Assembly: GCA_043806975.1 (NCBI GenBank)
Contig: JAZDGL010000018.1
Span: 1-37,747 of the forward strand
Direction: 5' to 3'
DNA length: 37,747 nt
From: a bacterium
GTDB lineage: Bacteria; Patescibacteriota; Minisyncoccia; CAYZDR01
Shown here: one piece after another, positions 375-36,198 of the stretch
Position numbering within the stretch: the stretch's first letter is position 1
How the letters are laid out: each line of letters starts with the position of its first letter
Notes under the pieces: model-generated
What the model was told of the DNA's origin: nothing
Database searches by the model: none
The model's input: only the letters and a program-made list of their open reading frames with translations
Made by a program: the position numbers and the translations under genes

Positions 375-440
375 CTCATTGTCACTCCGACCGAAGTAAT
401 TTCTGCTGGCAAAACAGAAATTACGAGCGGAGGAGTCTCT
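375..440. repeat. Family-B REP-like imperfect hairpin
   Basis: GTCACTCCGACCGAAGTAATTTCTG ... CAGAAATTACGAGCGGAGGAGTCTC. The same sequence class (GTCAyyCCGA...GGAgGAnTC) recurs at 636-706, 1477-1569, 13622-13654, 30326-30392 and 36074-36198. Confidence 0.55.
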
Positions 441-635: not shown

Positions 636-706
636 TTATTTAAGGGATCCCTCCACTCGCCTCCGCCTGAATACAGGCGGAGCTCGGTCGGGATGACAAA
701 TAAGGC
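636..706. repeat. Family-B REP-like unit abutting copy 1
   Basis: GGGATCCCTCCACTCGCCTCCGCCTGAATACAGGCGGAGCTCGGTCGGGATGAC with a perfect 9-bp hairpin CTCCGCCTG-AATA-CAGGCGGAG. Together with 596-635 it is the reverse complement of 30324-30436. Confidence 0.8.
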
Positions 707-1476: not shown

Positions 1477-1569
1477 GCGTCATCCTGAACGAAGTGGAGC
1501 GAAGTGAAGGATCCCGCATTTAAACTAAAAAAACGGGATTCTTCGCTCCTTTGTCGCTCAGAATGACGC
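1477..1569. repeat. Family-B REP-like inverted pair (long imperfect palindrome)
   Basis: GCGTCATCCTGAACGAAGTGGAGCGAAGTGAAGGATCCCG ... CGGGATTCTTCGCTCCTTTGTCGCTCAGAATGACGC. The arms are imperfect reverse complements. Confidence 0.75.
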
Positions 1570-3518: not shown

Positions 3519-5402
3519 ATGAGAAAGGAATCGGCAAAATCTTGGCAAGCGAGTTTTATTTTTTTTATTGAAATTTTGGGGCTGATTGCGCTAGTCTCCC
3601 GTTTAGCTTATTTGCAGGTTTTCAAATTCCCTCAATTTAAGACTGCTGCGGAGGATCAGCGCAAACTTTTTCGCGAAATTAGCCCAAAAAGGGGCAAGAT
3701 ATTTGTTTCTGATATAAATAATGATTTTTTTTCGGTTGCAGTGAATAAAAAAAGTTTTCTTTTTTATATTGTCCCCAAAGAGATTAAGGAAAAAGATGAT
3801 TTTATAGAGAAAATAGCGCCTATTTTAGCTGTGGAGGAGCGGAGGGCAGATCAGGAATTGCAAATGGCGATGAGCAGGGTTGAGGCGCAAGAAAAAGATG
3901 ATGAAAAAGAAAAGCTGGTGAGGCTAGGGAATGAAAATTTAGAAAATATAGCGGGTTTGAAAGATGAAGGCGGCGGGGGCGAGAAAGATGAGAATTTTTT
4001 TCTTGAAGAAGCTAAAAAAATGCTTAAAAGGCGGCTTGAAAATATGAATGATCCGTATGAAGCGGTGTCGGATAATATCAGCGAGGAGGCGGTTGAAGAA
4101 ATTCGCGGTTTGAAGCTGGCAGGTGTTTATTTTACATCTTTTTATAAAAGATATTATCCTGAGCAGGAATTTGCGGCGGAAATACTAGGTTTTATGGGGT
4201 ATAAAGATGATAAAATTACGGGTAGGTATGGCGTTGAGGAGTCTTTAAATGAAGAATTGGAAGGGCGATCGGGATCAATTTTGGGGGAAAAGGATTCGCA
4301 GGGGAGGCTGGTCGCGATAGGGGAAAAGAAGCTTAACCCTGTTCAAGATGGATGCGATATCTATCTTACTATTGATAGAAATGTTCAGTATAAGGCGCAG
4401 GAAATTTTAAAAGAAGCCGCGGAAGAATATAAAATTAAATCTGGATCTGTGATTGTGATGGATCCAAAAACAGGAAGAATTTTGGCTATGGCTGATTGGC
4501 CGACATTCAATCCGAATTATTATGGTAGGTTTGATTTAGAAGGTCTGCAAAACGGAGCAATCCAAAAACTTTATGAGCCGGGTTCAATTTTGAAAATTAT
4601 AACTGTTGCGGCGGCGATGAATGAAAATAAAATCAGTCCGAATAGTATTTTTGAAGATAAGGGTTTCGTGGAGATCGGGGGGAAAATTATAAAAAATTCC
4701 GATCCAAAGCCGCAGGGAGTTGTTTCTATTGTGGAAGTTTTGGAAAAATCTTTAAATACGGGAGCTATTTTTGCGCAACAGCAAATTGCAGAAGAAATAT
4801 TTCTTGACTATATCCGCAAATTTAATTTAGACAAAAAAACTGGCGTGGAGTTGTTGGGCGAGGCCGTTGGGAATATTCGTTCATTGGAAGAAAGACCTTA
4901 CAATGCAGTAAATTATGCGTCTGCTTCGTTTGGACAAGGGGTTGCATTAACTTCTTTAGAAATTTCTTCGGCAGTTTGCGCGATTGCGAACAAAGGAATG
5001 ATGATGAAGCCGTATATTATTGAAAAGATTGAAAAAAATGGGCAAAAAATAATTACGGATCCTAAAGAAACTGGACAGGCGGTCTCGCCTGCGACAGCGC
5101 TAAAAATTGGAGCGATGATGGTGAATGTGGTAAAAAATGGGTCTGGTTCGGGCGCCATGGTGGATGGATATAATGTTGCGGGGAAAACAGGGACTGCTCA
5201 AATCGCAGAAGATGGAAAATATACGGATCGTTCCATCCATTCTTTTGTGGGTTTTGCGCCGCTGGAAGATCCTGTTTTTTCTGTGTTTGTAAGGCTTGAT
5301 GATCCGGAGGGTTTTCGTTTTTCTTCGGCAACTGCTGCTCCAACATTTGGCAAAATAGCCAAATTTCTGTTAGAGTATTATGCGATACCGCCAAATAATT
5401 AA
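3519..5402 (+). CDS. ftsI: class B penicillin-binding protein / peptidoglycan D,D-transpeptidase
   Basis: N-terminal TM anchor plus SxxK (SILK), SxN (SLN) and KTG (AGKTGTA) motifs, in a dcw context. Confidence 0.9.
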   Translation: MRKESAKSWQASFIFFIEILGLIALVSRLAYLQVFKFPQFKTAAEDQRKLFREISPKRGKIFVSDINNDFFSVAVNKKSFLFYIVPKEIKEKDDFIEKIAPILAVEERRADQELQMAMSRVEAQEKDDEKEKLVRLGNENLENIAGLKDEGGGGEKDENFFLEEAKKMLKRRLENMNDPYEAVSDNISEEAVEEIRGLKLAGVYFTSFYKRYYPEQEFAAEILGFMGYKDDKITGRYGVEESLNEELEGRSGSILGEKDSQGRLVAIGEKKLNPVQDGCDIYLTIDRNVQYKAQEILKEAAEEYKIKSGSVIVMDPKTGRILAMADWPTFNPNYYGRFDLEGLQNGAIQKLYEPGSILKIITVAAAMNENKISPNSIFEDKGFVEIGGKIIKNSDPKPQGVVSIVEVLEKSLNTGAIFAQQQIAEEIFLDYIRKFNLDKKTGVELLGEAVGNIRSLEERPYNAVNYASASFGQGVALTSLEISSAVCAIANKGMMMKPYIIEKIEKNGQKIITDPKETGQAVSPATALKIGAMMVNVVKNGSGSGAMVDGYNVAGKTGTAQIAEDGKYTDRSIHSFVGFAPLEDPVFSVFVRLDDPEGFRFSSATAAPTFGKIAKFLLEYYAIPPNN

Positions 5403-6817: not shown

Positions 6818-6980
6818 TATAGCTCCCGCAAAATAAATTCTGATATTTTCCCCTTTAATAAGGGGGGATTGAAGGGGGGTTTTAATATTTTCTCCCTTTT
6901 AGAAGGGAGATTACCGCCCAAGGCGGTCTGCCTTGGGTAGAAGAGGGATTTTAAAATAAATTTGTTTTGCGGGAGCTATA
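6818..6980. repeat. Family-A modular palindromic element, copy 2 (complete, 163 bp)
   Basis: TATAGCTCCCGCAAAATAAATT ... AATTTGTTTTGCGGGAGCTATA. The cassettes are the same types as in copy 1 but in a different order. It ends 2 nt from the 3' end of tRNA-Glu. Confidence 0.9.
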
Positions 6981-6982
6981 AG

Positions 6983-7054
6983 TACCGCTACGGGGAGTTG
7001 AACCCCGGTTTTCAGGATGAGAACCTGATGTCCTAACCACTAGACGATAGCGGC
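6983..7054 (-). tRNA. tRNA-Glu (anticodon CUC)
   Basis: Reverse complement is GCCGCTATCGTCTAGTGGTTAGGACATCAGGTTCTCATCCTGAAAACCGGGGTTCAACTCCCCGTAGCGGTA. It folds as a cloverleaf with a 7-bp acceptor stem (G1-U72), a GG D-loop, anticodon loop TTCTCAT and a canonical TTCAACT T-loop. CCA is not encoded. Confidence 0.9.
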
Positions 7055-9390: not shown

Positions 9391-9510
9391 TATAGCTCCC
9401 GCAAAACAAATTCTAATAATTTCTCCCTTTAAAAAGGGAGATTACTGCCCAAGGCGGTCTGCCTTGGGCAGAAGAGGGATTTTAAAATAAATTTGTTTTG
9501 CGGAAGCTAT
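9391..9510. repeat. Family-A modular palindromic element, copy 3 (complete, 120 bp)
   Basis: TATAGCTCCCGCAAAACAAATT ... AATTTGTTTTGCGGAAGCTAT. It starts 25 nt after the DsbA-like stop and ends 28 nt before tRNA-CAU. Confidence 0.9.
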
Positions 9511-9538
9511 GTGCGATAGAAATTGTTATTGATTTTTT

Positions 9539-9610
9539 GGGCCCATAGCTCAGTGGTAGAGCGCCCGGCTCATAACCGGTTGGTCGTAGGTCCGACCCCT
9601 ACTGGGCCCA
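9539..9610 (+). tRNA. tRNA with CAU anticodon (elongator Met or lysidine-dependent Ile2; not an initiator)
   Basis: GGGCCCA-TA-GCTC-AGTGGTA-GAGC-G-CCCGG-CTCATAA-CCGGT-TGGTC-GTAGG-TCCGACC-CCTAC-TGGGCCC-A. The G1-C72 pair argues against initiator identity. The T-loop reads TCCGACC rather than TTCRAnn. CCA is not encoded. Confidence 0.8.
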
Positions 9611-9686
9611 CAGAATTTTGCAAAAATAAAAAATAAAATCGCCTTAATTTTATAAATTTAAATTGCGGCGGGATAAGGATAAAAAA

Positions 9687-13608: not shown

Positions 13609-13687
13609 ATAATGCTTTAGCATCATCCTGAACGAGCAGAGCGGGTGAAGGATCTTGTTAAAGTAAAAAAAATTGAAATTATAATTT

Positions 13688-13717
13688 TCCCCCTTTTTAA
13701 AGGGGGATGAAAGGGGG
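13688..13717 (+). promoter_or_regulatory. hairpin cassette supplying or sequestering the Shine-Dalgarno of the downstream gene
   Basis: TCCCCCTTT (13688-13696), AAAGGGGGA (13699-13707), AAAGGGGG (13710-13717), then ATG at 13723. Confidence 0.4.
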
Positions 13718-13722
13718 TTTTT

Positions 13723-16536: not shown

Positions 16537-16705
16537 TATAGTTTCCGTAAAACAAATTTATTTTAAAATCCCTCTTAGTCTCCCTTTTCAAAGGGAGAAA
16601 ATATCGGAATCCCTCTCAATCTTCCTTGCTGCGTCCCGCCAAAGTCCATGATGCGAAGGAGAATTAAGGGGGGAAAATATCGGAATTTGTTTTGCGGGAG
16701 CTATA
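16537..16705. repeat. Family-A modular palindromic element, copy 4 (complete, 169 bp)
   Basis: TATAGTTTCCGTAAAACAAATT ... AATTTGTTTTGCGGGAGCTATA. It contains the ~55-nt cassette (CTTGCTGCGTCCCGCCAAAGTCCATGATGCGAAGG) also present inverted at 30440-30500. It starts 10 nt after the stop codon. Confidence 0.9.
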
Positions 16706-17952: not shown

Positions 17953-19530
17953 ATGCCTAAACAAACAAGAAATACAATTTATTTTTTTCAGTTAATTTTG
18001 GCGGCGCTTATTGCTGTCGGGATATTGCCGAGATATTATAGTTTTTTTATTGCGCTGGCGGCGGGAATTTATATTTATTTTGCCGATAAAACAGACGCGC
18101 TTTGGTTCCTAATCGCTTCAATTCCGCTTTATATTGCCCTCCCTTTTTCTAAAAGCTTTGATACATCTGCGTATTGGAGAATTTTATTTATTGAATATTT
18201 TATAATTTTAGCTTTAAAAAATAAAGAAAAAATCGTAAAAAAAGCCAAAGAAATCAAAAAAGATTTAATCGCGCGAAATTTTACGAAAATTTTTAAAGAG
18301 TATAAAATAGAAATTTTAATGACAGTTTTGTTTTTGTTGAGCATATTTTCTTTGGTAGGAGCGGAGAATAAAGCGCTTGGAATAAAAAGGATAGCATATT
18401 TTGGCAATTTTTTTATTTTTTATCTTATTCTTGTATATGGAATAAACTCTTTGAGCGAATTGAAGAATGCTTTGCGCGGATTGGCTGCCTCTGCGGGAAT
18501 TTTCGTTTTTGTTGGTTTTTTGCAGTTATTTTCTATGTATTTTACAAGCTATCAAAATTTTTGGTCGTTTTGGGCTGGAAAAGTTATTCCAGTTTTTTAT
18601 GGTCAAAAGCTTGCTGAATTTGTAAGTTTTAATAATGCTTGGTTCGCATTTTCTTTGTCTGGGCAGGTTTCATTAAGAATGTTTTCGCTTTTTTCTGATG
18701 CGGCATCAATTGCTTTTGCGATGGCGATGATCTGTTTTACCGTAATTCCTCTCTCGTTTTACTTTTTTTCGGAAGGAGACTTATTTAAGAAAAAGTTTTT
18801 TACGGTAATTTCGCTTGCGCTGGTAATTTTAGGGATAATCCTTTCGGGAAGCCGCGGGGCGTGGGTCAGTATAATTTTTGCCGCTGGGTTTGCTTTATTT
18901 GTTGCGGTTTTAAAAAAAACAACTGCGCAAGACAGGGCGATTTATGTAAAAAATATAATTTTGATGTGCGTTCTTTTTTTGCTGCTTTTTCCAATGTCTC
19001 CGCTTCTATTAGGGGCAAAAGATATTTCTACGACATCTTTGGGAAGAATTAGAACAATTCAGGATGAAAGCGATGTGTCTAATAAAAATCGTATTGAGGT
19101 GTGGAAAACTTCTTTGAAAACCTTGAAAGAGCATCCATTTTTTGGGGTTGGCGTAGCGAATTTTTCTGCTGAACCGGAAAAATTCGGTGAAAACTTTAAA
19201 ACTGCAAGCCACAATATGTATTTGTATATTGCCTGTGAAATGGGAATTCCCGCCCTTTTAGTCGTTTTAGTCCTGATATTTTATTTATTTAAGGATTTAA
19301 TTGCGGAGTTTCACACGGCGGAGGACAAATTTTTAAAAATGTTTTATTTAAGTCTTGGCGCGGCGGCGGCGTGGGTGTTTGGGTTGAGTTTAAGTATAGA
19401 TTGCCTTTTGAATGTGGATAAAATGACTTTAATTTTTTTAAGTTTTATAGGAATTTTTTATGCATCAAAAAGAATTGTTGGGCGAACAAGCGATTTCGCT
19501 GGTATCGTTGGCGGTAATGTCGTTCAATAG
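17953..19530 (+). CDS. O-antigen ligase/polymerase-like (Wzy_C domain) polytopic membrane protein
   Basis: More than 10 TM helices, with SGSRGAWVS and a periplasmic loop followed by the HNMYL motif. Confidence 0.7.
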   Translation: MPKQTRNTIYFFQLILAALIAVGILPRYYSFFIALAAGIYIYFADKTDALWFLIASIPLYIALPFSKSFDTSAYWRILFIEYFIILALKNKEKIVKKAKEIKKDLIARNFTKIFKEYKIEILMTVLFLLSIFSLVGAENKALGIKRIAYFGNFFIFYLILVYGINSLSELKNALRGLAASAGIFVFVGFLQLFSMYFTSYQNFWSFWAGKVIPVFYGQKLAEFVSFNNAWFAFSLSGQVSLRMFSLFSDAASIAFAMAMICFTVIPLSFYFFSEGDLFKKKFFTVISLALVILGIILSGSRGAWVSIIFAAGFALFVAVLKKTTAQDRAIYVKNIILMCVLFLLLFPMSPLLLGAKDISTTSLGRIRTIQDESDVSNKNRIEVWKTSLKTLKEHPFFGVGVANFSAEPEKFGENFKTASHNMYLYIACEMGIPALLVVLVLIFYLFKDLIAEFHTAEDKFLKMFYLSLGAAAAWVFGLSLSIDCLLNVDKMTLIFLSFIGIFYASKRIVGRTSDFAGIVGGNVVQ

Positions 19531-20578
19531 CAAAAAGTATTATAAAGAAAAATACGAGCAAAATAAAAGTTATCTCAAACATCTTTTGATTTCTATTAAA
19601 AATCAAACTTATCCAAATTTGGAAATAATTATAATAGACGATTGTTCCGATGAAAACCCTTTTGAATTAGTTAAAACAATTTTACCGCAAGCTAAAATGA
19701 TAAGAAATGAAAAAAATTTGGGACTTTTGAAATCAGAAAATAAGGCGATAGAAATGTTTGGCGGAAAATACGCGGGCTTATTAAATCAGGATCTTTATTT
19801 AGAGGGAGATTATATAGAAAAATTGGTGGAAGTTTTAGAAAAAGATGAAAAAATTGGGGTTTGCGGAGGTAAAACTAGAACTTTTTTGTTAAACGAAAAG
19901 GGTGAACCGGAGTTTTCGCAATTGATAGATAGCGCAGGAATGTTGTTTTTTAAAGATCGCAATATAATTGAAGCGGGGAGAATGGAAGAGGATAATGGGC
20001 AGTATAATAAACAAAAGACAGTTTTTGGAATTACAGGGGCGGCTCCGCTTTTTAGGAAAGAAGCCCTTGAAGATATTAAAATTTTTGGAGAATATTTTGA
20101 TGAAGATTTTCAGATGTATAAAGATGATGTGGATTTGTGTTGGCGGATGAATTTACGAGGTTGGAAGTGCGAATATGCTCCGCAGGCGCTGGCGCATCAT
20201 GCTAGGACTTCTGCGGGAATTCCTAAAAAATACAGGAAAAATTTTTTATTGCGCCGTTTCGGATATATTATCCACAGGGTTGTTAAAAAGCAGTCGGGAG
20301 GCTCTGCAACGCGCCGCAGGGATGTAAGAAACCACTATTGGATGCTTGTAAAAAACGATACATGGCAAAGCTTGTTGAAATCTGCGCCTTTTTTTCTTTG
20401 GCGCGAGTTGCAAAAGCTGGTTTTTGGCATATTTTTTGAGCCTAATGTTTATTTTCCCGGCTGGGTGGACTTTTTCGGAAAATTAGGTAAAATGAAAGGG
20501 AAGAGAAAGATTATTCAGTCAAGACGGAAAATTATCTGGCAAGAGATGGAAAAGAGATTTGAAAAAGGGATATGGTAG
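19460..20578 (+). CDS. glycosyltransferase family 2
   Basis: ISLVSLAVMSFNS beta-1 strand and IIIIDDCSDE. It overlaps the upstream gene by 71 nt if the ATG at 19460 is used; the in-frame ATG at 19517 is an alternative start. Confidence 0.8.
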   Translation: MHQKELLGEQAISLVSLAVMSFNSKKYYKEKYEQNKSYLKHLLISIKNQTYPNLEIIIIDDCSDENPFELVKTILPQAKMIRNEKNLGLLKSENKAIEMFGGKYAGLLNQDLYLEGDYIEKLVEVLEKDEKIGVCGGKTRTFLLNEKGEPEFSQLIDSAGMLFFKDRNIIEAGRMEEDNGQYNKQKTVFGITGAAPLFRKEALEDIKIFGEYFDEDFQMYKDDVDLCWRMNLRGWKCEYAPQALAHHARTSAGIPKKYRKNFLLRRFGYIIHRVVKKQSGGSATRRRDVRNHYWMLVKNDTWQSLLKSAPFFLWRELQKLVFGIFFEPNVYFPGWVDFFGKLGKMKGKRKIIQSRRKIIWQEMEKRFEKGIW

Positions 20579-20669
20579 CTAATTAACAAAACAAATTCCG
20601 ATGTTTTCCCCCTTGGCAAGGGGGAATTGAAAGGGGTTTTGTGAATAAATTTGTTTTGCGGGAGCTATA
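20576..20669. repeat. Family-A element, copy 5 (left end degenerate, overlaps the stop codon)
   Basis: TAGCTAATTAACAAAACAAATTCC ... one CCCCCTTGGCAAGGGGG cassette ... AATTTGTTTTGCGGGAGCTATA. Confidence 0.75.
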
Positions 20670-24653: not shown

Positions 24654-26378
24654 ATGAAATTTATTTTTGTTGCAGGCGGAGTGATGTCAGGAGTAGGGAA
24701 AGGCGTTGCGGCCGCATCTATTGCTAAAATTTTGCAAAGCAAAGGGTATAGCATAACATCTATTAAAATTGATCCTTATGTGAATGTGGATGCGGGGACA
24801 ATGAACCCTGTGGAGCATGGGGAGGTTTTTGTGACCCACGATGGAATGGAATGCGATATGGATATGGGAAATTATGAAAGGTTTTTAAACAAAAACATTT
24901 TGGCAACGAATTATATGACCACGGGGTCGGTTTATAAGGCTATCATAGATAAAGAAAGAAATTTGGAATATAAAGGAAAGTGCGTTTCGGTGGTGCCGAT
25001 GATCCCAGAAGAAGTTATCGCAAGAATAAAGCGGGCGGGAAAATTAGCGAAAGCGGATATGGTGGTTGTGGAAATTGGCGGGACGGTGGGTGAATATGAA
25101 AATATCTTGTTTTTGGAGGCAGCGCGGATGATGCGGCTGCGCGAACCGAAGGGGGTCGTTTTTATTTTAGTTAGTTTTTTGCCTATTCCAAGCAAAATTG
25201 GAGAGATGAAGACAAAGCCTACTCAGCATGCGGTTCGGACGCTAAATTCAGCTGGAATTCAGCCCGATTTTATTTTATGCCGCTCAACTAATCCGCTTGA
25301 TGAAAGAAGAAAAGAAAAAATTTCCATATTTTGTAATATGCTTAAAGATGATGTGATTTCTGCTCCTGATGTTGAATCTATTTACGATGTTCCTGTGAAT
25401 TTTGAAAAAGATGAGCTTGGAAAGAAAATTTTGAAAAAATTTGGAATGAAAGCGAAAAAAACAAATATGCAAAATTGGCGCGAAATGGCTGAAATAATGA
25501 AAAGCAGCAAAAAAGAAGTAAAAATTGGAATTGTTGGGAAGTATTTTAAGTCAGGAGATTTTGTTTTAAAAGATGCGTATGTTTCTGTGATTGAAGCAAT
25601 TAAGCACGCGGCATGGGTAAATAAGCGTAAGCCTATAATTGAGTGGGTGGACGCAGGAGAGTTTGAAGAAACACCTCTTTCTCCCCCTTTCGGAGGGGGA
25701 GGTAGGAGGAGTGGAAATTCTCTCCTCCTTGATAAGGGGGAGGTTAGGAGGGGGTCTTCTATAAATTGTCTAAAAAATTTTGATGCGATTATTGTTCCTG
25801 GCGGTTTTGGCGAAAGAGGGGTTGAGGGGAAAATTGCCGCGATAAAATATGCGCGAGAAAACAAAATTCCGTTTTTGGGGCTTTGTTTGGGAATGCAAAT
25901 GGCAGTGATAGAATTTGCTCGCAATGTCTGCGGATTATCTGGCGCGAATTCCACCGAAATTAATTCAAAAACAAAATATCCCGTGATAGATATTATTGAA
26001 GAGCAAAAAGAAAAAATGAAAAATAAAAATTATGGCGGGAGTATGCGCTTGGGGGCGTATAAATGCAGTTTAAAGTCGAATACAGAGGCGCTGAAAGCGT
26101 ATAAAATGACGGGGAGAATAATTAATGGTGAAAATGGTGAGAATTTGGTTGAAGAGCGCCATCGCCATAGATATGAGTTTAATAATGGTTTCAGACAGAA
26201 ACTGGAAGAAAAAGGGTTGATAATCTCGGGCATAAACCCGGAGCAGAATTTAGTGGAAATTATTGAGTTAAAGGATCACCCATTTTTTGTCGGGGTTCAA
26301 TTTCATCCAGAATTTTTGTCTCGTCCGTTAGATCCGCACCCGCTATTTAAAGAATTGATAAAAGCGGCGATAAAGTAA
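24654..26378 (+). CDS. pyrG: CTP synthase
   Basis: MKFIFVAGGVMSGVGKG start, and the GATase motifs PGGFGERG, GLCLGMQ and HRHRYE. The upstream TTG extension in the track is repeat-derived. Confidence 0.95.
   Translation: MKFIFVAGGVMSGVGKGVAAASIAKILQSKGYSITSIKIDPYVNVDAGTMNPVEHGEVFVTHDGMECDMDMGNYERFLNKNILATNYMTTGSVYKAIIDKERNLEYKGKCVSVVPMIPEEVIARIKRAGKLAKADMVVVEIGGTVGEYENILFLEAARMMRLREPKGVVFILVSFLPIPSKIGEMKTKPTQHAVRTLNSAGIQPDFILCRSTNPLDERRKEKISIFCNMLKDDVISAPDVESIYDVPVNFEKDELGKKILKKFGMKAKKTNMQNWREMAEIMKSSKKEVKIGIVGKYFKSGDFVLKDAYVSVIEAIKHAAWVNKRKPIIEWVDAGEFEETPLSPPFGGGGRRSGNSLLLDKGEVRRGSSINCLKNFDAIIVPGGFGERGVEGKIAAIKYARENKIPFLGLCLGMQMAVIEFARNVCGLSGANSTEINSKTKYPVIDIIEEQKEKMKNKNYGGSMRLGAYKCSLKSNTEALKAYKMTGRIINGENGENLVEERHRHRYEFNNGFRQKLEEKGLIISGINPEQNLVEIIELKDHPFFVGVQFHPEFLSRPLDPHPLFKELIKAAIK
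25674..25760 (+). repeat. two hairpin cassettes of the intergenic repeat system inserted in frame (87 nt, 29 codons) in pyrG
   Basis: 25719-25755 matches intergenic 27523-27559 at 35 of 37 positions. It encodes PLSPPFGGGGRRSGNSLLLDKGEVRRGSS, between the EFEE strand and LKNFDAIIVPGGFG. Confidence 0.85.
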
Positions 26379-26399: not shown

Positions 26400-26534
26400 T
26401 ATAGCTTCCGTAAAACAAATTCCGTTATTTTCTCCCTTTAAAAAGGGAGATTAAGAGGGATTTTGATGTTTTCCCCCTTAATAAGGGGGAATTGAAGGGG
26501 GTTTTGTAAATAAATTTGTTTTGCAAAAGCTATA
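26400..26534. repeat. Family-A modular palindromic element, copy 6 (complete, 135 bp)
   Basis: TATAGCTTCCGTAAAACAAATT ... AATTTGTTTTGCAAAAGCTATA, starting 22 nt after the pyrG stop. Confidence 0.9.
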
Positions 26535-26536
26535 AT

Positions 26537-26582
26537 TTGTCGTTGCGAGAAGCTCGAAAGGCGACGCGGCAATCTTGGAAGT
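26537..26582. repeat. Family-C REP-like unit (short copy)
   Basis: TTGTCGTTGCGAGAAGCTCGAAAGGCGACGCGGCAATCTTGG. The same class occurs at 31033-31094 and 31139-31203. Confidence 0.6.
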
Positions 26583-26928: not shown

Positions 26929-26970
26929 TTCCCCCTTTGAAAAGGGGGATTGAGGGGGTTTTATCCCCCG
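26929..26970. repeat. hairpin cassette directly upstream of the rpmA start
   Basis: TTCCCCCTTTGAAAAGGGGGATTGAGGGGGTTTTATCCCCCG. On the rpmA strand the AAAGGGGGAAGAAAGAAG tract before the ATG can pair with TCCCCCTTTT. Confidence 0.7.
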
Positions 26971-27399: not shown

Positions 27400-27570
27400 T
27401 TTTTTTCCTCTCCCCCTTACTATGTTCTGCCGAAACACAATAGAGCAAAGGAGAATCAATAGAACGAAGGAGAATCAAGGGGTAGGGGGGGATTTTTTCC
27501 CTTTTCTGAGGGGGATTTTTTTTCTCTCCCCCTTGGTAAGGGGGAGGTTAGGAGGGGGTGCATTGGGGAA
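27400..27570. repeat. cluster of hairpin cassettes between convergent genes
   Basis: CCTCTCCCCCTTAC..., GGGGTAGGGGGGG, TCCCTTTTCTGAGGGGGA and TCTCTCCCCCTTGGTAAGGGGGAGGTTAGGAGGGGGT. Confidence 0.8.
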
Positions 27571-28764: not shown

Positions 28765-28792
28765 ATTATACAGCAAATTCTTGAAATTTCAA
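28765..28792 (-). promoter_or_regulatory. promoter for the nuclease gene, -10 only 6 nt from the ATG
   Basis: Reverse strand reads TTGAAA (28792-28787), 16 nt, TATAAT (28770-28765), ATCCTT, then ATG (28758). The -35 lies in the palindrome TTGAAATTTCAA (28781-28792). Confidence 0.5.
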
Positions 28793-28857
28793 AACTTTTT
28801 TATATGGAGGAAATTTGAGATTTTGTTAAACGGGATGTTTTTATTTTTCCTAAACTA

Positions 28858-28866
28858 TGCTAAAAT
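28858..28866 (+). promoter_or_regulatory. extended -10 element (TGcTAAAAT) 7 nt upstream of the NTase ATG
   Basis: TGCTAAAAT at 28858-28866, ATG at 28874, no SD. Confidence 0.4.
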
Positions 28867-28873
28867 AAAACTA

Positions 28874-29185
28874 ATGAGATTAGAAAAATACAGCGAAGAA
28901 AAATTAAAAAAGCAGATTTTGGAAATAGCGAGTAAACATTTAGATTTAAGCCAATACAAGGTGTTCTTTTTTGGTTCAAGGGTCTTCGGAGGAGGAAGCG
29001 ACCGTTCTGACATTGATCTTGGAATAGAAGGGAAGAATCCTGTTCCAATCAGAGAATTTGAAAATATTAAGGAGGAAATTGAGGAAATTCCGATTTTGTA
29101 TAAAGTTGAACTGGTGGATTTTAAAAAAGTTTCTCCGGAATTTTATAATTTTGCAAAAAAATCTATTGAAATAATTAATCCGTAA
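28874..29185 (+). CDS. mntA: minimal nucleotidyltransferase (MNT), antitoxin of a HEPN/MNT type VII toxin-antitoxin pair
   Basis: FFFGSRVFGGGSDRSDIDLGIEG (GSx10-12DxD motif); 103 aa from the ATG at 28874. Confidence 0.85.
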   Translation: MRLEKYSEEKLKKQILEIASKHLDLSQYKVFFFGSRVFGGGSDRSDIDLGIEGKNPVPIREFENIKEEIEEIPILYKVELVDFKKVSPEFYNFAKKSIEIINP

Positions 29186-29196
29186 AACATAAAAAA

Positions 29197-29586
29197 ATGG
29201 GAAAAAGCAAATTTTCATTATTATTATCGCAATTTAAAAAAGCCGTTTTGCGGCTGGATGAAGTCTTGAAGCAAGAAAAAAATGATTTTATGAGAGATTC
29301 TGCCATTCAAAGGTTTGAATTTACTTTTGATTTGGCATGGAAAGCGGTTAAGGCTTATTTGGAAGAAGAAAGAGGTGTTATTTGCAATTCTCCCAAAGGT
29401 TGTTTTCGCGATGCTTATCAGCAAAAAATTATTGAAAACGATGAATTTTGGCTGGAAATTACGGATGCTCGCGATAGAACCTCGCATACTTATGAAGAAA
29501 TAACAGCAGAAGAAGTTTATCAAACCTTGCCTAAGTCGTTGGAATATTTCAAAAAACTATTAGAAAAATTACAAGATAATTCATAG
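29197..29586 (+). CDS. hepT: HEPN-domain protein, HI0074-family nucleotidyltransferase substrate-binding protein (toxin)
   Basis: RDSAIQRFEFTFDLAWKAVKAYL and the Rx4H motif RDRTSHTY. It starts 11 nt after the MNT gene. Confidence 0.85.
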   Translation: MGKSKFSLLLSQFKKAVLRLDEVLKQEKNDFMRDSAIQRFEFTFDLAWKAVKAYLEEERGVICNSPKGCFRDAYQQKIIENDEFWLEITDARDRTSHTYEEITAEEVYQTLPKSLEYFKKLLEKLQDNS

Positions 29587-29608
29587 AATCAAATTTATTT
29601 TGAAAATT

Positions 29609-30235
29609 ATGCAAAAATTGCTGTCGCGAGAGCAGATAAATAATATCCAAATTGAAGAAAACGGAGAGAGGCTGGTTTTAGTAAAAGGAACGGATAGATT
29701 AAAGATTTCGGATAAATTTGCGGATGTTTTTCTTGTTCGGGAAAAAGTTCTTGAGATGTTAAATGAGGCGGCAGATAGCTTACCGATTGGTTTTACGCTT
29801 ATTTTTCTAGAAGGGTTTAGAAGCAGGCAAAAGCAGCAGCAAATTTGGGATAGCGCTATTTTAAAAGTAGAGAAAGGAAACCCGAATTTTAGTAAAGAAG
29901 AAATTGGAAGAAAGGTCAGGCTTAGTGTTGCTGCGCCGACGGGAAAAGGAGGGCACCAAACTGGTGGAGCTGTGGATGTCGCGCTAGGCGACGAAAAGGG
30001 GAATGAATTATTTTTAGGGACTGAAGCATGGGGGTTTAGCGAAAAGACATTTACTTTCAATGAATTGATTTCTTCTGAGGAGCAGGAATTAAGAAAGGTT
30101 TTATTTGATGCTATGATAAAAGCTGGATTTCAAAATTATCCTGCCGAATGGTGGCATTATAGTTATGGCGATCAGCTTTGGGCAGCTTACGGGGGGCATC
30201 CGAAAGCGATTTACTCGCATTTGGATATAGAATAG
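29609..30235 (+). CDS. D-alanyl-D-alanine dipeptidase (VanX/DdpX-like, peptidase M15D)
   Basis: GGHQTGGAVDV (SxHxxGxAxD-type) and AEWWHYSYGD motifs. ATG at 29609 is preferred over the TTG at 29600. Confidence 0.8.
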   Translation: MQKLLSREQINNIQIEENGERLVLVKGTDRLKISDKFADVFLVREKVLEMLNEAADSLPIGFTLIFLEGFRSRQKQQQIWDSAILKVEKGNPNFSKEEIGRKVRLSVAAPTGKGGHQTGGAVDVALGDEKGNELFLGTEAWGFSEKTFTFNELISSEEQELRKVLFDAMIKAGFQNYPAEWWHYSYGDQLWAAYGGHPKAIYSHLDIE

Positions 30236-30246
30236 TCTTTCTCTGC

Positions 30247-30277
30247 AGTTCCTTTTTAAAGGGAACTATTTTTGTTT
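30247..30277 (+). terminator. rho-independent terminator
   Basis: AGTTCCTTT-TTA-AAGGGAACT followed by ATTTTTGTTT. Confidence 0.7.
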
Positions 30278-30323
30278 AACAGCGACATAAGCAAAGTGTT
30301 AACTTTATCTTGGTAACTGCTTG

Positions 30324-30545
30324 CTGCCCTTATTTGTCATTCCGACCGAGCTCTGCCTGTATTCAGGCGGAGGCGAGTGGAGGGATCCCTTAAATAATAT
30401 AGTTGCCGCAAAAAAAATTCCGATGTTTTCTCCCTTTGGCCATCCTTCGTCCTATGGGCTTTGGCGGGACGCGGCAAGAAAGACTGAGAGGGATTCCGAT
30501 GTTTTCTCCCTTTTTAAAGGGAGATTAAGAGGGATTTTAAAATAT
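30324..30545. repeat. composite of a Family-B unit plus a Family-A element (copy 7, right terminus missing)
   Basis: 30324-30436 is the reverse complement of 596-706, at roughly 105 of 113 positions by eye. The left TIR is TATAGTTGCCGCAAAAAAAATT at 30398. Confidence 0.85.
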
Positions 30546-30576
30546 AAAAAAGCGCCTCGATGCAATGCATCGAGGC
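30544..30576 (-). terminator. rho-independent terminator for the 68-aa gene
   Basis: GCCTCGATGCA / TGCATCGAGGC palindrome (30554-30576). On the reverse strand it is followed by GCTTTTTTATATT. Confidence 0.7.
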
Positions 30577-30592
30577 CTGGTATAAAATAAAA

Positions 30593-30799
30593 CTAGAGTA
30601 ATTTTCGAACTGCCCAGTAATAAATTCCCGATTCATTTTTTTCCCTGGTAATCTCGCAATTGAGAATTGCCAATTCTTCCTTAATTCTATCTTGAGAGTC
30701 ACCACATAGAAATAAATCATAAACAGGTAACCATTCTTTTGTCGCTTGTTCTGAAAGCTCTTTTGCTTTTTCTTTTAATGCTTTTTTTGAATTTTCCAT
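30593..30799 (-). CDS. hypothetical small protein (68 aa)
   Basis: MENSKKALKEKAKELSEQATKEWLPVYDLFLCGDSQDRIKEELAILNCEITREKNESGIYYWAVRKLL. AAGGAAA lies upstream of the ATG at 30799. It has its own promoter and terminator. Confidence 0.6.
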   Translation of the reverse strand: MENSKKALKEKAKELSEQATKEWLPVYDLFLCGDSQDRIKEELAILNCEITREKNESGIYYWAVRKLL

Positions 30800-30835
30800 C
30801 AAATTTTTCCTTTCTTTCTTTTTAAGGTTATTGAC

Positions 30836-30897
30836 TTCTTCTGGCTGCAATCGCAATGACTATTATCAGATAATCACTGTGATTGTAGCCAGAAGAA
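30836..30897 (-). promoter_or_regulatory. long hairpin with a central palindrome in the 5' leader of the 68-aa gene
   Basis: 17-nt arms TTCTTCTGGCTGCAATC (30836-30852) and GATTGTAGCCAGAAGAA (30881-30897) with one mismatch. A central TTATCAGATAA palindrome lies at 30863-30873. Confidence 0.55.
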
Positions 30898-30970
30898 TAA
30901 GCCGAAAATAGAGAAGAAAACAGCTTTTCAAGGAACTACCGCACATTCGCATTTGAAGCCGAACACTTAT

Positions 30971-30999
30971 ATTATAGCACCAATTTTACATTTTGTCAA
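30971..30999 (-). promoter_or_regulatory. consensus sigma70-type promoter
   Basis: Reverse strand reads TTGACA (30999-30994), exactly 17 nt, TATAAT (30976-30971). It lies about 165 nt upstream of the ATG at 30799. Confidence 0.6.
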
Positions 31000-31032
31000 T
31001 CTAAATTGGCAGAACTACTTACTGCCTCAAAA

Positions 31033-31203
31033 TTGTCATTGCGAGAAGCCCGCAGTTTCGTAAGAAACAAGGGCGACGAAGCAATCTCGTGACGACGCGG
31101 AAAATAGCGTTAAGTTAAAAATAAATCGTAAATCCTGCTTTGTCGCGAGATTGCCGCGTCGCTATCCGCCTTCGGCGGATGAACGCTCCTCGCAATGACA
31201 GGA
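31033..31203. repeat. inverted pair of Family-C REP-like units
   Basis: TTGTCATTGCGAGAAGC...GGCGACGAAGCAATCTCGTGACG (31033-31094), with its inverted homologue TTGTCGCGAGATTGCCGCGTCGC...GCTCCTCGCAATGACAGG (31139-31203). Confidence 0.75.
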
Positions 31204-31237
31204 TTAAAATACGGTGAATAATCATATACAAAAAAAT

Positions 31238-31266
31238 TTGACAAAAAACATCTCGTGTGATATAAA
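31238..31266 (+). promoter_or_regulatory. near-consensus sigma70-type promoter of an orphan transcription unit
   Basis: TTGACA (31238-31243), 17 nt, TGa-TATAAA (-10 at 31261-31266). Confidence 0.6.
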
Positions 31267-31275
31267 TAAATCGCA

Positions 31276-31446
31276 ATGAGTAATATAAATTATCACCAGT
31301 TAAATAGAAACAACCGAGTCGGAATGATTTCCGGGAATTTTTGCTTTGTTTTTGGCATTTTTATGCCAAAAACAGCCAATATCTCAACAAATCTTCCAAT
31401 GTTTTCGTTTAGTCGGGATAATTATTTTAAGCATCGTATTATGTAA
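31276..31446 (+). other. orphan unit body: either a leaderless 56-aa ORF or a non-coding RNA of about 240 nt
   Basis: ATG lies 9 nt after the -10 with no SD. The ORF is MSNINYHQLNRNNRVGMISGNFCFVFGIFMPKTANISTNLPMFSFSRDNYFKHRIM. An internal 12-bp hairpin TGTTTTTGGCAT-TTTT-ATGCCAAAAACA is present. Confidence 0.3.
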
Positions 31447-31476
31447 ATAATCGATAAAAATCACTTAAAACAACCC

Positions 31477-31510
31477 AATCTCGGCTAAACGCCGAGATTT
31501 TTGATTTTTT
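31477..31510 (+). terminator. rho-independent terminator
   Basis: AATCTCGGC-TAAAC-GCCGAGATT followed by TTTGATTTTTT. Confidence 0.8.
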
Positions 31511-31547
31511 GGAAAGTTTTTTAACAATCAACCAAAGGAGTTGCAAA

Positions 31548-32087
31548 ATGCTTAAAGGAGAAAAAGTTCTTTTGAGGCCAATTAAAAAGTCTGACATTTA
31601 TAATCTTGCTACTTGGGTAAATGATCAAGAAGTAAATCAATTTACTTCGCATGATCTTCCAATGGCTGAGGTAATGGAAGAACAATGGTTTGAGAAAAAA
31701 GTAGCAAGAACTGATAGCGTTATTTTAGTTGTTGAAGCAATTGATTGCGAAGAGCCAAAACCCATAGGTTCTTGTGGGATTCATGGGATACATATGATTT
31801 ACAGAAATGCTGGCTTTGGGATTATGATAGGGGAAAAAGACTATTGGGAAAAAGGATATGGATCGGAAGCCGCTCAGCTTATCATCAATTTCGCTTTTTA
31901 TCGACTTAACTTAAATCGTATTTCTTCTGCAGTTCTGGATTTTAATCCGCGGAGCCTAGCTTTGCATAAAAAGCTGGGTTTTAAGGAAGAGGGGAGAAAA
32001 AGAGAATCTTTTTACAAAAATGGCAGATATTGCGACGAGATAATTTTTGGTCTTTTGCGAAAAGAATGGGAGGAGATGAAAAAATAA
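31548..32087 (+). CDS. GNAT family N-acetyltransferase (RimJ/RimL-like)
   Basis: MLKGEKVLLRPIKKSDIYNLATW... and WEKGYGSEA. AAGGAG lies 7 nt before the ATG at 31548. The track's TTG at 31509 lies inside the upstream terminator T-tract. Confidence 0.85.
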   Translation: MLKGEKVLLRPIKKSDIYNLATWVNDQEVNQFTSHDLPMAEVMEEQWFEKKVARTDSVILVVEAIDCEEPKPIGSCGIHGIHMIYRNAGFGIMIGEKDYWEKGYGSEAAQLIINFAFYRLNLNRISSAVLDFNPRSLALHKKLGFKEEGRKRESFYKNGRYCDEIIFGLLRKEWEEMKK

Positions 32088-32105
32088 TTTTAGGCATAAG
32101 ACAAA

Positions 32106-32137
32106 ATACAGCGAATAAAAATTCGCTGTATTTTTTT
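32106..32137 (+). terminator. rho-independent terminator
   Basis: ATACAGCGAAT-AAAA-ATTCGCTGTAT followed by a 7-T run. Confidence 0.85.
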
Positions 32138-32138
32138 A

Positions 32139-32245
32139 CCCCCTCTTAATCTCCCCCTTGTAAAAGGGGAGAGGATTAGAAAATAATCCCGAACTATTTT
32201 AAAAAGAGGGAAAATTTGATGACTTGTTTTGCGGCAAAAGTGTAT
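32139..32245. repeat. degenerate Family-A remnant
   Basis: CCCTCTTAATCTCCCCCTTGTAAAAGGGGAGAGGATTAG cassette plus a right-TIR-like TTGTTTTGCGGCAAAAG. No left TIR is present. Confidence 0.55.
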
Positions 32246-32443
32246 TATAAAAATAGGGAAGCGCCATAAAAATAAGCGCTGTTGCGGCGCTTGAAATTCC
32301 GTCGTTCGCCACAGGTGCAAGCAAGCTTGCGCCTGTGGGCTCGCTAGGAATTATAAAAAATCCACCCTGTGGATAACTTTTAGGCTATGTCGCACAATGT
32401 ATCTTGTGCGACATAAAAACAGGATATTTGGAGAAGTGCTTAA

Positions 32444-34534: not shown

Positions 34535-36078
34535 AATAAAATTTTTAATTTTTGTATCCCCTCCCCAATTCTTTCAATCGATTTATCTTTTCCTAATACC
34601 CATGCAACCTCAAAGGGAGTTGGCGACTTATCTGCTCCTGTGAGGGCATAGCGCATTGGCCAAAGCATATTTCCCTTGCCTGCTTTTTCTGCTTTCGGAG
34701 TAATTTTTGCTTCTAAATTTTCTTTCGTCCAATCGTTTTCGGGGATTTCGGATAAAATATCTTGGATTGTTTCTAGATTTTTTATGGTCTCTTCTTTGTT
34801 AGATTTTTTCCAAATAAGTTTTTCCGCCGAATAATCAATTTTATCAAATAAAAAGAAATCAATATTTTCCGTAATATCTGAAAGTTTTTTAATCCGTTCC
34901 CGTTCTATGGAAACGATTTTTTTGATATATTCTTTATCTGAAATTTTTTCAATAAATTTTTGACATTGCCTACCGGCAGGCAGGTTTTTGATCCCTCGGA
35001 TTAACTCGGGACAAGCTTTTGTTTTTTGATTTTCTATAAATGGCGCGCATCTTTCTGCTAGTTCTTCTAAATCCATTTTCTTAATATACTGCCCATTAAA
35101 CCAATCTAGTTTTTCGTAGCTGAAAATTGGCGCGGCTTTATTCACCTTGGATAAATCAAAATTTTCAATTAGTTCTTCTTTTGAAAATATCTCTTGTTCG
35201 GTTTTTGGGTTCCATCCCAAAAAAGCGATATAATTTATAATCGCTTCTGGCAAATACCCTTGTTCTTGAAAATCGGAAACTTTTGTGCTGCCGTGCCGCT
35301 TGGATAGTTTTTTCTTATCCGAACCCAAAATAACTGGCAGATGCGCGTATTGAGGCGCTTCCCAGCCAAACGCTTCAAATAAAGCGAGATGCTTTGGCGC
35401 GCTAGCAATCCATTCTTCTCCGCGAACAATATGGGTAGTTTTCATTAAATAATCGTCAACTATATGAGCAAAGTGATATGTTGGATAGCCATCAGATTTC
35501 AGTAAAACGGGATCGTCAATCAATTTTCCGTCAAATTCTATTTTGCCATAAACAATGTCTTCCAAAATATATTTTTTATCAGGCATTTTAAATCGGATTA
35601 CAAAAGGCTGCCCGTCTTCAATTTTCTTTTTGGCTTCTTCCGAAGATAATTTTAAGCAGGCGCGATCATACATTGGCGCTTGTTTGTTTTTTTCTTGCTC
35701 TTTTCGCAAATCTTCAAGCCGTTCAGGCGAGCAAAAACAATAATAAGCTATTCCCTTTTCAATAAGTTCATTTGTGTATTTTTTGTAAATATCTAGCCGT
35801 TTGCTTTGGATATATGGGCCAAAATCCCCTTTTTCTTTTCCATTTTTATCAATTACGCCTTCATCCCAATTTATTCCAATCCATTTTAAACTTTCAATTA
35901 TTGCTTCTAGCCCTTCTGGATCAAATCTTTGTTGGTCGGTGTCTTCAATTCTTAGAAAAAATTCCCCCTTATTTTTATGCGCAAAAAGCCACGCAAAAAG
36001 CGCGGTGCGAACGCCGCCGATATGCATTTTTCCTGTTGGCGATGGAGCGAAACGAGTTCTGACCATATTTTTTGTCAT
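34531..36078 (-). CDS. gltX: glutamate--tRNA ligase
   Basis: RFAPSPTGKMHIGGVRTALF (HIGH motif) and KLSKRHG (KMSKS motif). The first ATG (36078) lies inside a REP unit; the ATG at 36066 is an alternative start. Confidence 0.93.
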   Translation of the reverse strand: MTKNMVRTRFAPSPTGKMHIGGVRTALFAWLFAHKNKGEFFLRIEDTDQQRFDPEGLEAIIESLKWIGINWDEGVIDKNGKEKGDFGPYIQSKRLDIYKKYTNELIEKGIAYYCFCSPERLEDLRKEQEKNKQAPMYDRACLKLSSEEAKKKIEDGQPFVIRFKMPDKKYILEDIVYGKIEFDGKLIDDPVLLKSDGYPTYHFAHIVDDYLMKTTHIVRGEEWIASAPKHLALFEAFGWEAPQYAHLPVILGSDKKKLSKRHGSTKVSDFQEQGYLPEAIINYIAFLGWNPKTEQEIFSKEELIENFDLSKVNKAAPIFSYEKLDWFNGQYIKKMDLEELAERCAPFIENQKTKACPELIRGIKNLPAGRQCQKFIEKISDKEYIKKIVSIERERIKKLSDITENIDFFLFDKIDYSAEKLIWKKSNKEETIKNLETIQDILSEIPENDWTKENLEAKITPKAEKAGKGNMLWPMRYALTGADKSPTPFEVAWVLGKDKSIERIGEGIQKLKILL

Positions 36079-36198
36079 TCCGAACGGAACGGAGTGGAGT
36101 GAGGAATCTCTTCAAAAATATTAGCAATGATCAAATATAAATTTTGAAAATACTATTAAAGAGATCCCCCTCTCCCCTTCGGGTCGTTCGGGATGACA
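36074..36198. repeat. Family-B REP-like inverted pair spanning the WecG-like/gltX junction
   Basis: GTCATTCCGAACGGAACGGAGTGGAGTGAGGAATCTCTTC (36074-36113) and AAGAGATCCCCCTCTCCCCTTCGGGTCGTTCGGGATGACAG (36158-36198). Confidence 0.75.

Follow-up and report, generated by a model that had tools for sequence, protein, structure and literature searches.

The 37,747-bp contig JAZDGL010000018.1 (assembly GCA_043806975.1; GC content ~36%), which was analyzed over its whole length and is herein referred to as the window, comes from a bacterium of the Patescibacteriota and carries mraZ, rsmH, ftsL, ftsI, murF, lgt, a DsbA-like gene, a hydrogenase gene, glycosyltransferase genes, the genes for ribosomal proteins L9 and L27, pyrG, gltX, and others. 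Its PyrG and MurF proteins have their best matches in Patescibacteria/Parcubacteria-type metagenome-assembled genomes (MAGs), exact look-ups of its MurF and MraZ proteins gave no other record, and two tRNA genes, tRNA-Glu (6982-7054, - strand) and tRNA-Met (9539-9611, + strand), are all that a search against Rfam at gathering thresholds returned from the window, with no family over the repeat elements that are our subject. These are seven copies of a short repeat bounded by terminal inverted repeats (TIRs), which occur about once every 5 kb and make up ~2.6% of the contig. We hypothesize, with a probability that we put at roughly 0.85, that they are nonautonomous transposable elements of the miniature inverted-repeat type (MITEs) derived from, and mobilized in trans by, a transposase of the IS630 family (Tc1/mariner-type DDE enzymes), because they are flanked by TA and because the same 20-nt ends delimit full-length insertion sequences (ISs) of the IS630 family.

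The 22-nt sequence TATAGCTCCCGCAAAACAAATT matches the window 12 times at up to three mismatches and does not occur in 100 dinucleotide-preserving shuffles, and a repeat finder recovers the same repeat families and their internal hairpins. The matches form five convergent pairs (475/635, 6818/6980, 9391/9511, 16537/16705, and 26400/26534; copies M1 to M5) and two unpaired ends (20648-20669 of copy M6 and 30398-30419 of copy M7), a pairing that agrees with the dense TIR-bounded family mapped in a preliminary description of this DNA. The elements have the form TAGCTCCCGCAAAACAAATT...AATTTGTTTTGCGGGAGCTA with TA on each side, in five complete copies of 121-169 bp and two damaged ones (96-169 bp overall). 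Complete copies read TA-TAGCT...AGCTA-TA, and their two arms differ from each other at 1-4 of 20 nt. TA is found at 11 of 13 element ends, against a TA dinucleotide frequency of 6.6%. The preliminary description had given all complete copies TIRs of about 22 nt, and these are present; their outer TA is best read as a target-site duplication and not as the final two bases of the repeat, with the element proper beginning at TAGCT, since this is the rule for the family and the same TA surrounds full-length IS copies. A 20-nt TIR with a flanking TA duplication is the hallmark of IS630/Tc1-mariner elements and has been summarized for bacterial MITEs (PMC2229807).

Insertion sequences of the IS630 family with matching ends do exist (L030, L039, L042, L008, and L035; L numbers denote sequences outside the window); the preliminary description had advised a search for transposases whose ends match the TIR. 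A scan of a genome collection with the TIR gave 14 matches where our own arithmetic (8/4^20 for each of 1.2e12 positions) leads one to expect ~9 by chance, and the real ones among them are an IS630 copy (L002/L008) and two MITEs (L005 and L014); a metagenome scan gave 21 matches, of which L026, L030, and L035 are IS630 copies, and a scan of viral contigs gave none. Positions 172-1282 of the metagenome contig L030 are an entire IS of 1111 bp that is flanked by TA at either end; its termini, TAGCCCCCGCAAAACAAATT and TAGCTCCCGCAAAACAAATT, are identical to the MITE ends at 19 of 20 and 20 of 20 positions, respectively. Its intact 342-aa open reading frame (ORF) scores 191 bits against the NCBIfam model NF033545, "IS630 family transposase" (cutoff 100); a PDB sequence search with this transposase gave no match. 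On the Latescibacterota chromosome OZ247580.1 (L008), the match is the exact terminus of a TA-TAGCTTCCGCAAAACAAATT element that has an imperfect inverse of this end and encodes HTH_33/HTH_29 and DDE_3 domains. The copy there (L008, 4343-6339) is split by a nested insertion with other transposase-like ORFs, and the same end is found again in L002. L035 and L026 are damaged copies resembling L030, and in a Patescibacteria genome (L039) a protein named IS630 family transposase by NCBI is bounded by TA-TAGTCCCCGCAAAACAAATT ... AATTTAATTTGCGGGGGCTA-TA, an arrangement repeated in L042-44. The 342-aa transposase has 832 protein matches at E<=1e-20, nearly all of them 342 aa long and mostly encoded on contigs of ~1.1-2 kb. 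Contigs this short are typical of repeats that break assemblies, and since matching IS copies are placed on them, the MITE family probably breaks metagenome assemblies too.

Alignments of MITE ends with IS ends have TA and ~20-22 nt in common and nothing beyond. The two MITE ends differ slightly, the A end going on as ...AAATTCCGAT and the B end as ...AAATTTATTTTAAAA (AAATTCC vs AAATTT), an asymmetry that parallels the right and left ends of L030 and is a small hint of descent from an L030-like IS. The interior does not derive from an IS, as its repeated unit, searched for with a model, has no match inside the full-length IS copies L030 and L039-44.

When all copies are written in A-to-B polarity, the interior decomposes into one or two tandem three-arm units of ~42 nt, a decomposition backed by the repeat families D1, D2, D5, and D16 and by the unit model. 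The layout of the unit is (C)CGATRTTTT - CYCCCTT(T) - 4-nt loop - (A)AAGGGRG - ATTR - (A)AGRGGG - (A)TTTT, and it comes in two flavors, U (arms CTCCCTTT / AGGGAG / AGAGGG) and C (CCCCCTT / AGGGGG / AAGGGGG). The hairpin cassettes of the preliminary description are present as it had them, including the GC-rich hairpin CCGCCCAAGGC-GGTCT-GCCTTGGGCGG, which is invariably preceded by ATTA and followed by the third arm of a U unit, in one orientation. Two copies consist of a C unit alone (M6) or a U unit with the GC hairpin alone (M3); in M1, a U unit bearing the GC hairpin precedes a C unit, M2 has these two in the reverse order, and in M5 a U unit without the hairpin precedes a C unit. In M4 and M7, the first unit (a C unit in M4, a U unit in M7) has an insert of ~45-55 nt where its loop and second arm would be, and a U unit follows. 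The cassettes had been described as appearing in different orders and orientations; order and number do vary, and orientation is constant relative to the polarity of the element, with the GC hairpin and the ~45-55-nt insert each at one fixed position within a subfamily. This fixed orientation, together with two nested inserts that define subfamilies, indicates that the interiors vary through descent with gain and loss of tandem units, and not through free shuffling. An idea that the repeats are guide arrays of the CRISPR or TIGR type was dropped, as the window is without tandem arrays: Tandem Repeats Finder detected none, and at most two units are consecutive.

Comparison with related genomes bears on whether these elements have moved. 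Approximately 85 kb of syntenic DNA is available from relatives of the window (L036, L037/38, L045/46, L047/48, and L050-52), with identities to the window of 76% for PyrG in L036, 72% for PyrG and 56% for MurF in L037/38 and L045/46, 60% for MurF in L047/48, 73% for PyrG in L050/51, and 72% for PyrG in L052; across this range (PyrG 72-76%, MurF 54-62%), the relatives are too diverged for base-level alignment of filled and empty spacers. This DNA contains no TIR at up to five mismatches, nor any by the end models, against 12 in the window, and four orthologous spacers (murF-tRNA-Glu, dsbA-tRNA-Met, GT2-LytR, and pyrG-L27) are without the element in the relatives. The dsbA-tRNA-Met spacer is 0-83 nt long in the relatives versus 172 nt in the window, and L045 and L047 are without M3. 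At pyrG-L27, L036 has a 50-nt spacer with a bare hairpin unit, and L037 and L050 are without such an element; at the GT2-LytR site of M6, L036 again has a bare unit and L037 a spacer of 12 nt. Copies also occur outside this contig. On contigs of two aquatic metagenome runs (X1 and X2; organism at ~2x depth), they have unrelated flanks, and the matches break exactly at 6818 and 6980, the two ends of M2, and at 9391, the left end of M3. Related MITEs that share the ends, the TA flanks, and the type of unit are present in two further MAGs (L014, 2614-2765; L005, with an end at 4117-4155). Excision joints were not seen in the DNA runs X1-X3, nor was the L030 IS detected in the two runs that contain this organism, both of them uninformative results at contig depths of only ~2x.

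The well-kept TIRs of the window argue that its MITE insertions are younger than the split from L036. We also considered that the bare units of L036 may be relics of MITEs that lost their ends; for the AT-rich flanks, only a vague similarity is seen. The relatives L047, L050, L037, and L045 have AT-rich spacer repeats of their own, such as AAAGTTCATAAAGT... and ATTACGAATTACGAATTA motifs around hairpins, and different lineages seem to have different families of small repeats at the same intergenic positions.

In the mechanism that we favor, the N-terminal helix-turn-helix domains of an IS630-family transposase would bind the 20-nt ends TAGCTCCCGCAAAACAAATT, and the element would be excised and inserted at a TA, which would be duplicated to give TA-element-TA. 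The cargo would consist of tandem ~42-nt units, with subfamilies that carry a nested GC hairpin or the ~45-55-nt insert. In so compact a genome, nearly only intergenic insertions would be expected to survive, which would explain why copies lie just after stop codons and beside tRNA genes, and the strong hairpins and T runs would probably serve as, or stand in for, terminators of transcription and structures at RNA ends. All complete copies are indeed intergenic, as the preliminary description had it: M3, M4, and M5 begin 9-24 nt after a stop codon, a single nucleotide separates M2 from the 3' end of tRNA-Glu, and M3 ends 27 nt before tRNA-Met. None contains an ORF of at least 80 aa, in keeping with their description as noncoding. 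Folded as RNA, complete copies form a long outer stem around separate hairpins, with z-scores of -6 to -11 against shuffled controls. The notion of dispersed, noncoding MITEs with a modular interior is supported by the data. The sequences show directly how the elements are built, their TA flanks, the identity of their ends with those of complete IS630 elements, and their absence from orthologous sites of relatives; actual mobilization, a working transposase in this genome, and any role in termination we infer.

Several points weigh against this interpretation. The 37.7-kb contig has no transposase gene, so that a partner in the same cell is postulated; no transposase was recognized in the window, either in the preliminary description or here, where the window proteins scanned against Pfam included a PD-(D/E)XK nuclease and an MNT/HEPN pair and nothing transposase-like, the other window ORFs being judged housekeeping genes by eye. 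The closest full-length IS, that of L030, lies on a 1.4-kb contig of unknown host, and at the level of strains we found no empty site that retains a single TA. Copies diverge by ~7-20%, with 2-4 mismatches in several ends, and the family may by now be inactive. Since the interior units are also seen on their own, the ends alone do not explain the spread of all of the repeated sequence.

The individual copies follow this plan with differences in preservation. M1 (475-635, polarity -) measures 161 bp including its TA flanks, with TA on both sides, four arm mismatches, and end-model E values of 1e-12 and 5e-10. M2 (6818-6980, +) is 163 bp long and consists of TA, TIR, its two units, TIR, and TA; its predicted fold as RNA is one long stem that encloses three hairpins (-74.8 kcal/mol, z -7.4). 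The adjacent tRNA-Glu(CTC) gene at 6982-7054 lies on the - strand in the window and on the + strand, the direction of murF, in the relatives L045, L047, and L048, an inversion that may be linked to M2, whose end is next to the tRNA 3' end. M3 (9391-9511, +; 121 bp), between the dsbA-like gene and tRNA-Met, has TG and not TA as its right flank, fold z-scores of -9.6 and -11.3, and 93% identity to 6880-6979. M4 (16537-16705, polarity -; 169 bp) has an 84% inverted match to 30397-30544, and M5 (26400-26534, +; 135 bp) lies between the convergent pyrG and L27 genes, 21 nt past the pyrG stop codon, with fold z-scores of -6.2 and -7.1.

Three stretches had been described as partial copies, and two of them are confirmed as such. 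M6 (20576-20669, +) is nearly complete; its B end is intact and has TA, and its A end (TAGCTAATTAAC...) is degenerate. The TAG stop codon (20576-20578) of the glycosyltransferase gene at 19460-20578 is formed by the first three bases of this degenerate left end, and in the relatives the gene has a TAA stop at the codon where the window has the M6-derived TAG. M7 (30398-30545, +) is one-ended, with an A end with TA followed by its two units, and is cut off exactly at the expected start of the B-end TIR. A mechanically called 89-aa ORF with a TTG start (30321-30590) runs through M7 and is probably spurious, a false gene call typical of such repeats. The third stretch (32139-32245, -) is a weak relic only, with one unit and an end remnant (TTGTTTTGCGG; unit-model E 1.7e-5, end-model E ~1).

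The three loose cassettes of the preliminary description consist of the same unit and have no ends. One (13684-13721, +) lies after the hydrogenase gene, without TIRs, and has a terminator-like score (unit-model E 1e-9); a second (26929-26970, +; E 8e-9) lies in the spacer from which L27 and the next ORF diverge, at a distance of ~10 nt upstream of the L27 start, and is kept at the orthologous place in L036 (11968-12001, E 8e-9); the third (27400-27570, +) is a cluster of degenerate units, CTCTCCCCCTT...AAGGGGGAGGTTAGGAGGGGGT, with a 19-nt tandem repeat. Beside the second stands a GGGGG-TTTTAT-CCCCC hairpin that is also kept in L036, and unit and hairpin together are a possible leader or ribosome-binding-site structure. 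Two further units, in tandem (25677-25755, +; PLSPPFGGGGRRSGNSLLLDKGEVRRG), lie in frame within pyrG, where they add ~27 codons to a variable loop and are absent from the PyrG proteins of five relatives. A second insert in pyrG, the 11 residues MTGRIINGENG (~26106-26140), is likewise not found in the five closest PyrG relatives. In L036, solo units occupy four spacers, including those after pyrG and after GT2 where the window has MITEs, and L014 has a solo unit in which another GC hairpin is nested at the equivalent internal position; the unit model found no units in L037, L045, L047, L050, and L052. Some units resemble intrinsic terminators by score, with the first and third arms pairing ahead of the T run, and the unit between the convergent pyrG and L27 genes of L036, with an A run on one side and a T run on the other, reads as a putative bidirectional terminator.

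The solo units lend some weight to a different account, in which the ~42-nt unit is itself a dispersing, REP/SPRITE/RPE-like "mobile terminator" of this lineage that needs neither TIR nor TA, and IS630 ends captured an array of such units. Solo copies in the window and in L036, whose 21.6 kb are free of MITE ends, and the pair of in-frame units in pyrG speak for spread without TIRs. We regard this account as unlikely, if well short of negligible; were it true, the MITE would carry terminators around a very compact genome. Alternatively, the units may have originated as native terminator hairpins that were recruited into the MITE interior.

Much less probable is that the elements are not mobile at all, being structured terminators or other RNA elements of the host that were multiplied by local duplication and gene conversion and resemble IS630 only incidentally. 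Most copies do follow directly on stop codons, the units are terminator-like, one solo unit is conserved at its orthologous site in L036, and the bare units of L036 sit in the same spacers as MITEs of the window; however, 19-20 of 20 positions of the ends agree with IS630 termini, exactly at the boundaries of the ISs and with the same TA flanks, the copies point either way with respect to the upstream gene (M1 and M4 being the reversed ones), none is present in the ~85 kb of relatives' DNA, and copies with unrelated flanks occur on other contigs and in other MAGs. We likewise give very little credence to the preliminary proposal that these are mosaic palindromes resembling repetitive extragenic palindromes (REPs) and bacterial interspersed mosaic elements (BIMEs), which a RAYT transposase (of the Y1 type of IS200/IS605) moves as single-stranded hairpins. 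A mosaic interior of short GC-rich hairpins that also occur singly in intergenic regions is common to both; yet REPs and BIMEs, whose units are imperfect palindromes of ~20-40 nt with a conserved GTAG-type tetranucleotide at the 5' side, have no TIRs and no TA duplication and depend on a Y1 and not a DDE enzyme, and the window elements lack their defining features. They have 20-nt TIRs identical to the ends of DDE-type IS630 elements with TA flanks, and no GTAG-type tetranucleotide precedes their hairpins, the units being preceded instead by (C)CGATRTTTT or by A/T runs; no Y1 transposase domain was found in the ten window and locus proteins scanned against Pfam, with the remaining window ORFs assessed by eye only. 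Equally implausible is that each copy arose separately, by internal deletion, from a full-length IS once present at that site: the ends are IS ends and their asymmetry mirrors that of L030, but all copies have the same non-IS interior units, and the same foreign interior would not arise seven times.

As IS630-type MITEs, with a TA target and a hairpin interior, these elements represent a biology that is well precedented and is here found in a Patescibacteria host. Sequence likeness between them and the Correia elements of Neisseria is presumably limited to the terminal TATAG. Closest in kind is RUP of the pneumococcus, a 107-bp MITE attributed to IS630-Spn1, which like the window elements is small and noncoding, has IS630-like TIRs and a TA target, and has been proposed to be mobilized in trans (PMC2229807; PMC3049150); RUP has no sequence relation to them and a simple, uniform interior with ~9-nt TIRs, in contrast to their variable tandem-unit interior, 20-nt TIRs, and Patescibacteria host. 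Correia elements (also known as NEMIS or CREE) are 100-155 bp long with TIRs of ~24-26 bp, and in transcripts they give rise to long hairpins with effects on mRNA processing and on expression (PMC2229807; PMC10969869). They share with the window elements the terminal TA, the TIRs, the TA duplication, and subtypes defined by an internal block of ~50 bp (PMC2229807; PMC10969869), and differ in belonging to another sequence family, whereas a partner transposase family can be identified for the elements described here. BOX elements of Streptococcus, boxA-(boxB)n-boxC, similarly place fixed terminal modules around variable tandem internal modules, and because these internal modules fold alone, changes in their copy number leave the outer stem undisturbed (PMC3049150); the gain and loss of tandem units in the window is comparable to boxB copy-number variation (PMC3049150). 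The BOX ends are only weakly like ISSpn2 and the BOX modules are unrelated, whereas the window elements have clear IS630 TIRs with TA.

The solo units have counterparts of their own. Pneumococcal SPRITEs, which resemble rho-independent terminators in having a hairpin and a T-rich tract, are enriched just 3' of genes and have possibly been co-opted as terminators (PMC3049150), and they differ from the units in forming a single long duplex, the unit having one C-rich and two G-rich arms within ~42 nt and occurring also in MITEs and in a gene. The pyrG units are comparable to the RPEs of Rickettsia, palindromic repeats that lie in frame in genes of a reduced genome (PMC10969869); RPEs are ~100-150 bp long, specific to Rickettsia, and without sequence relation to the units, of which a single in-frame case is seen here, so that we draw an analogy and not a membership.

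Patescibacteria (also called CPR) have tiny, gene-dense genomes that are usually described as poor in mobile DNA. We found no description of MITEs in Patescibacteria in the literature searched. In the window, the MITE adjoins tRNA genes and supplies the stop codon of one gene, and the host group, the density of copies, and the TIR-less spread of a hairpin unit, including into the essential gene pyrG, add to the interest of the family. The 20-nt end with TA offers a simple marker for annotating such elements and for avoiding spurious ORF calls, and a defined DNA end combined with a transposase family is a candidate genetic tool in a group that has almost none.

A second family of small repeats, of the form GTCATTCCGA-[variable hairpin]-GAGGAATCTC, has 8-9 copies in the window (381-437, 641-697(-), ~1500-1567(-), 26540-26576, 30336-30392, 31035-31089, ~31143-31200(-), 36074-36110, and ~36150-36197(-)). 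The last of these, at 36197(-), provides the final ~12 codons and the stop codon of a WecG-like gene, an extension that the relatives do not have. Copies of this family and M7 border an island at 28781-32400 that is variable relative to L036 and L037 and that contains the MNT/HEPN pair (a nucleotidyltransferase with an NTase_sub_bind/HepT-like partner), a putative D-Ala-D-Ala dipeptidase-like ORF, small ORFs, and a GNAT-like ORF. Two second-family copies adjoin MITE A ends at an equal 8-nt offset, which creates a 111-nt inverted repeat of 94% identity (595-705 vs 30328-30438).

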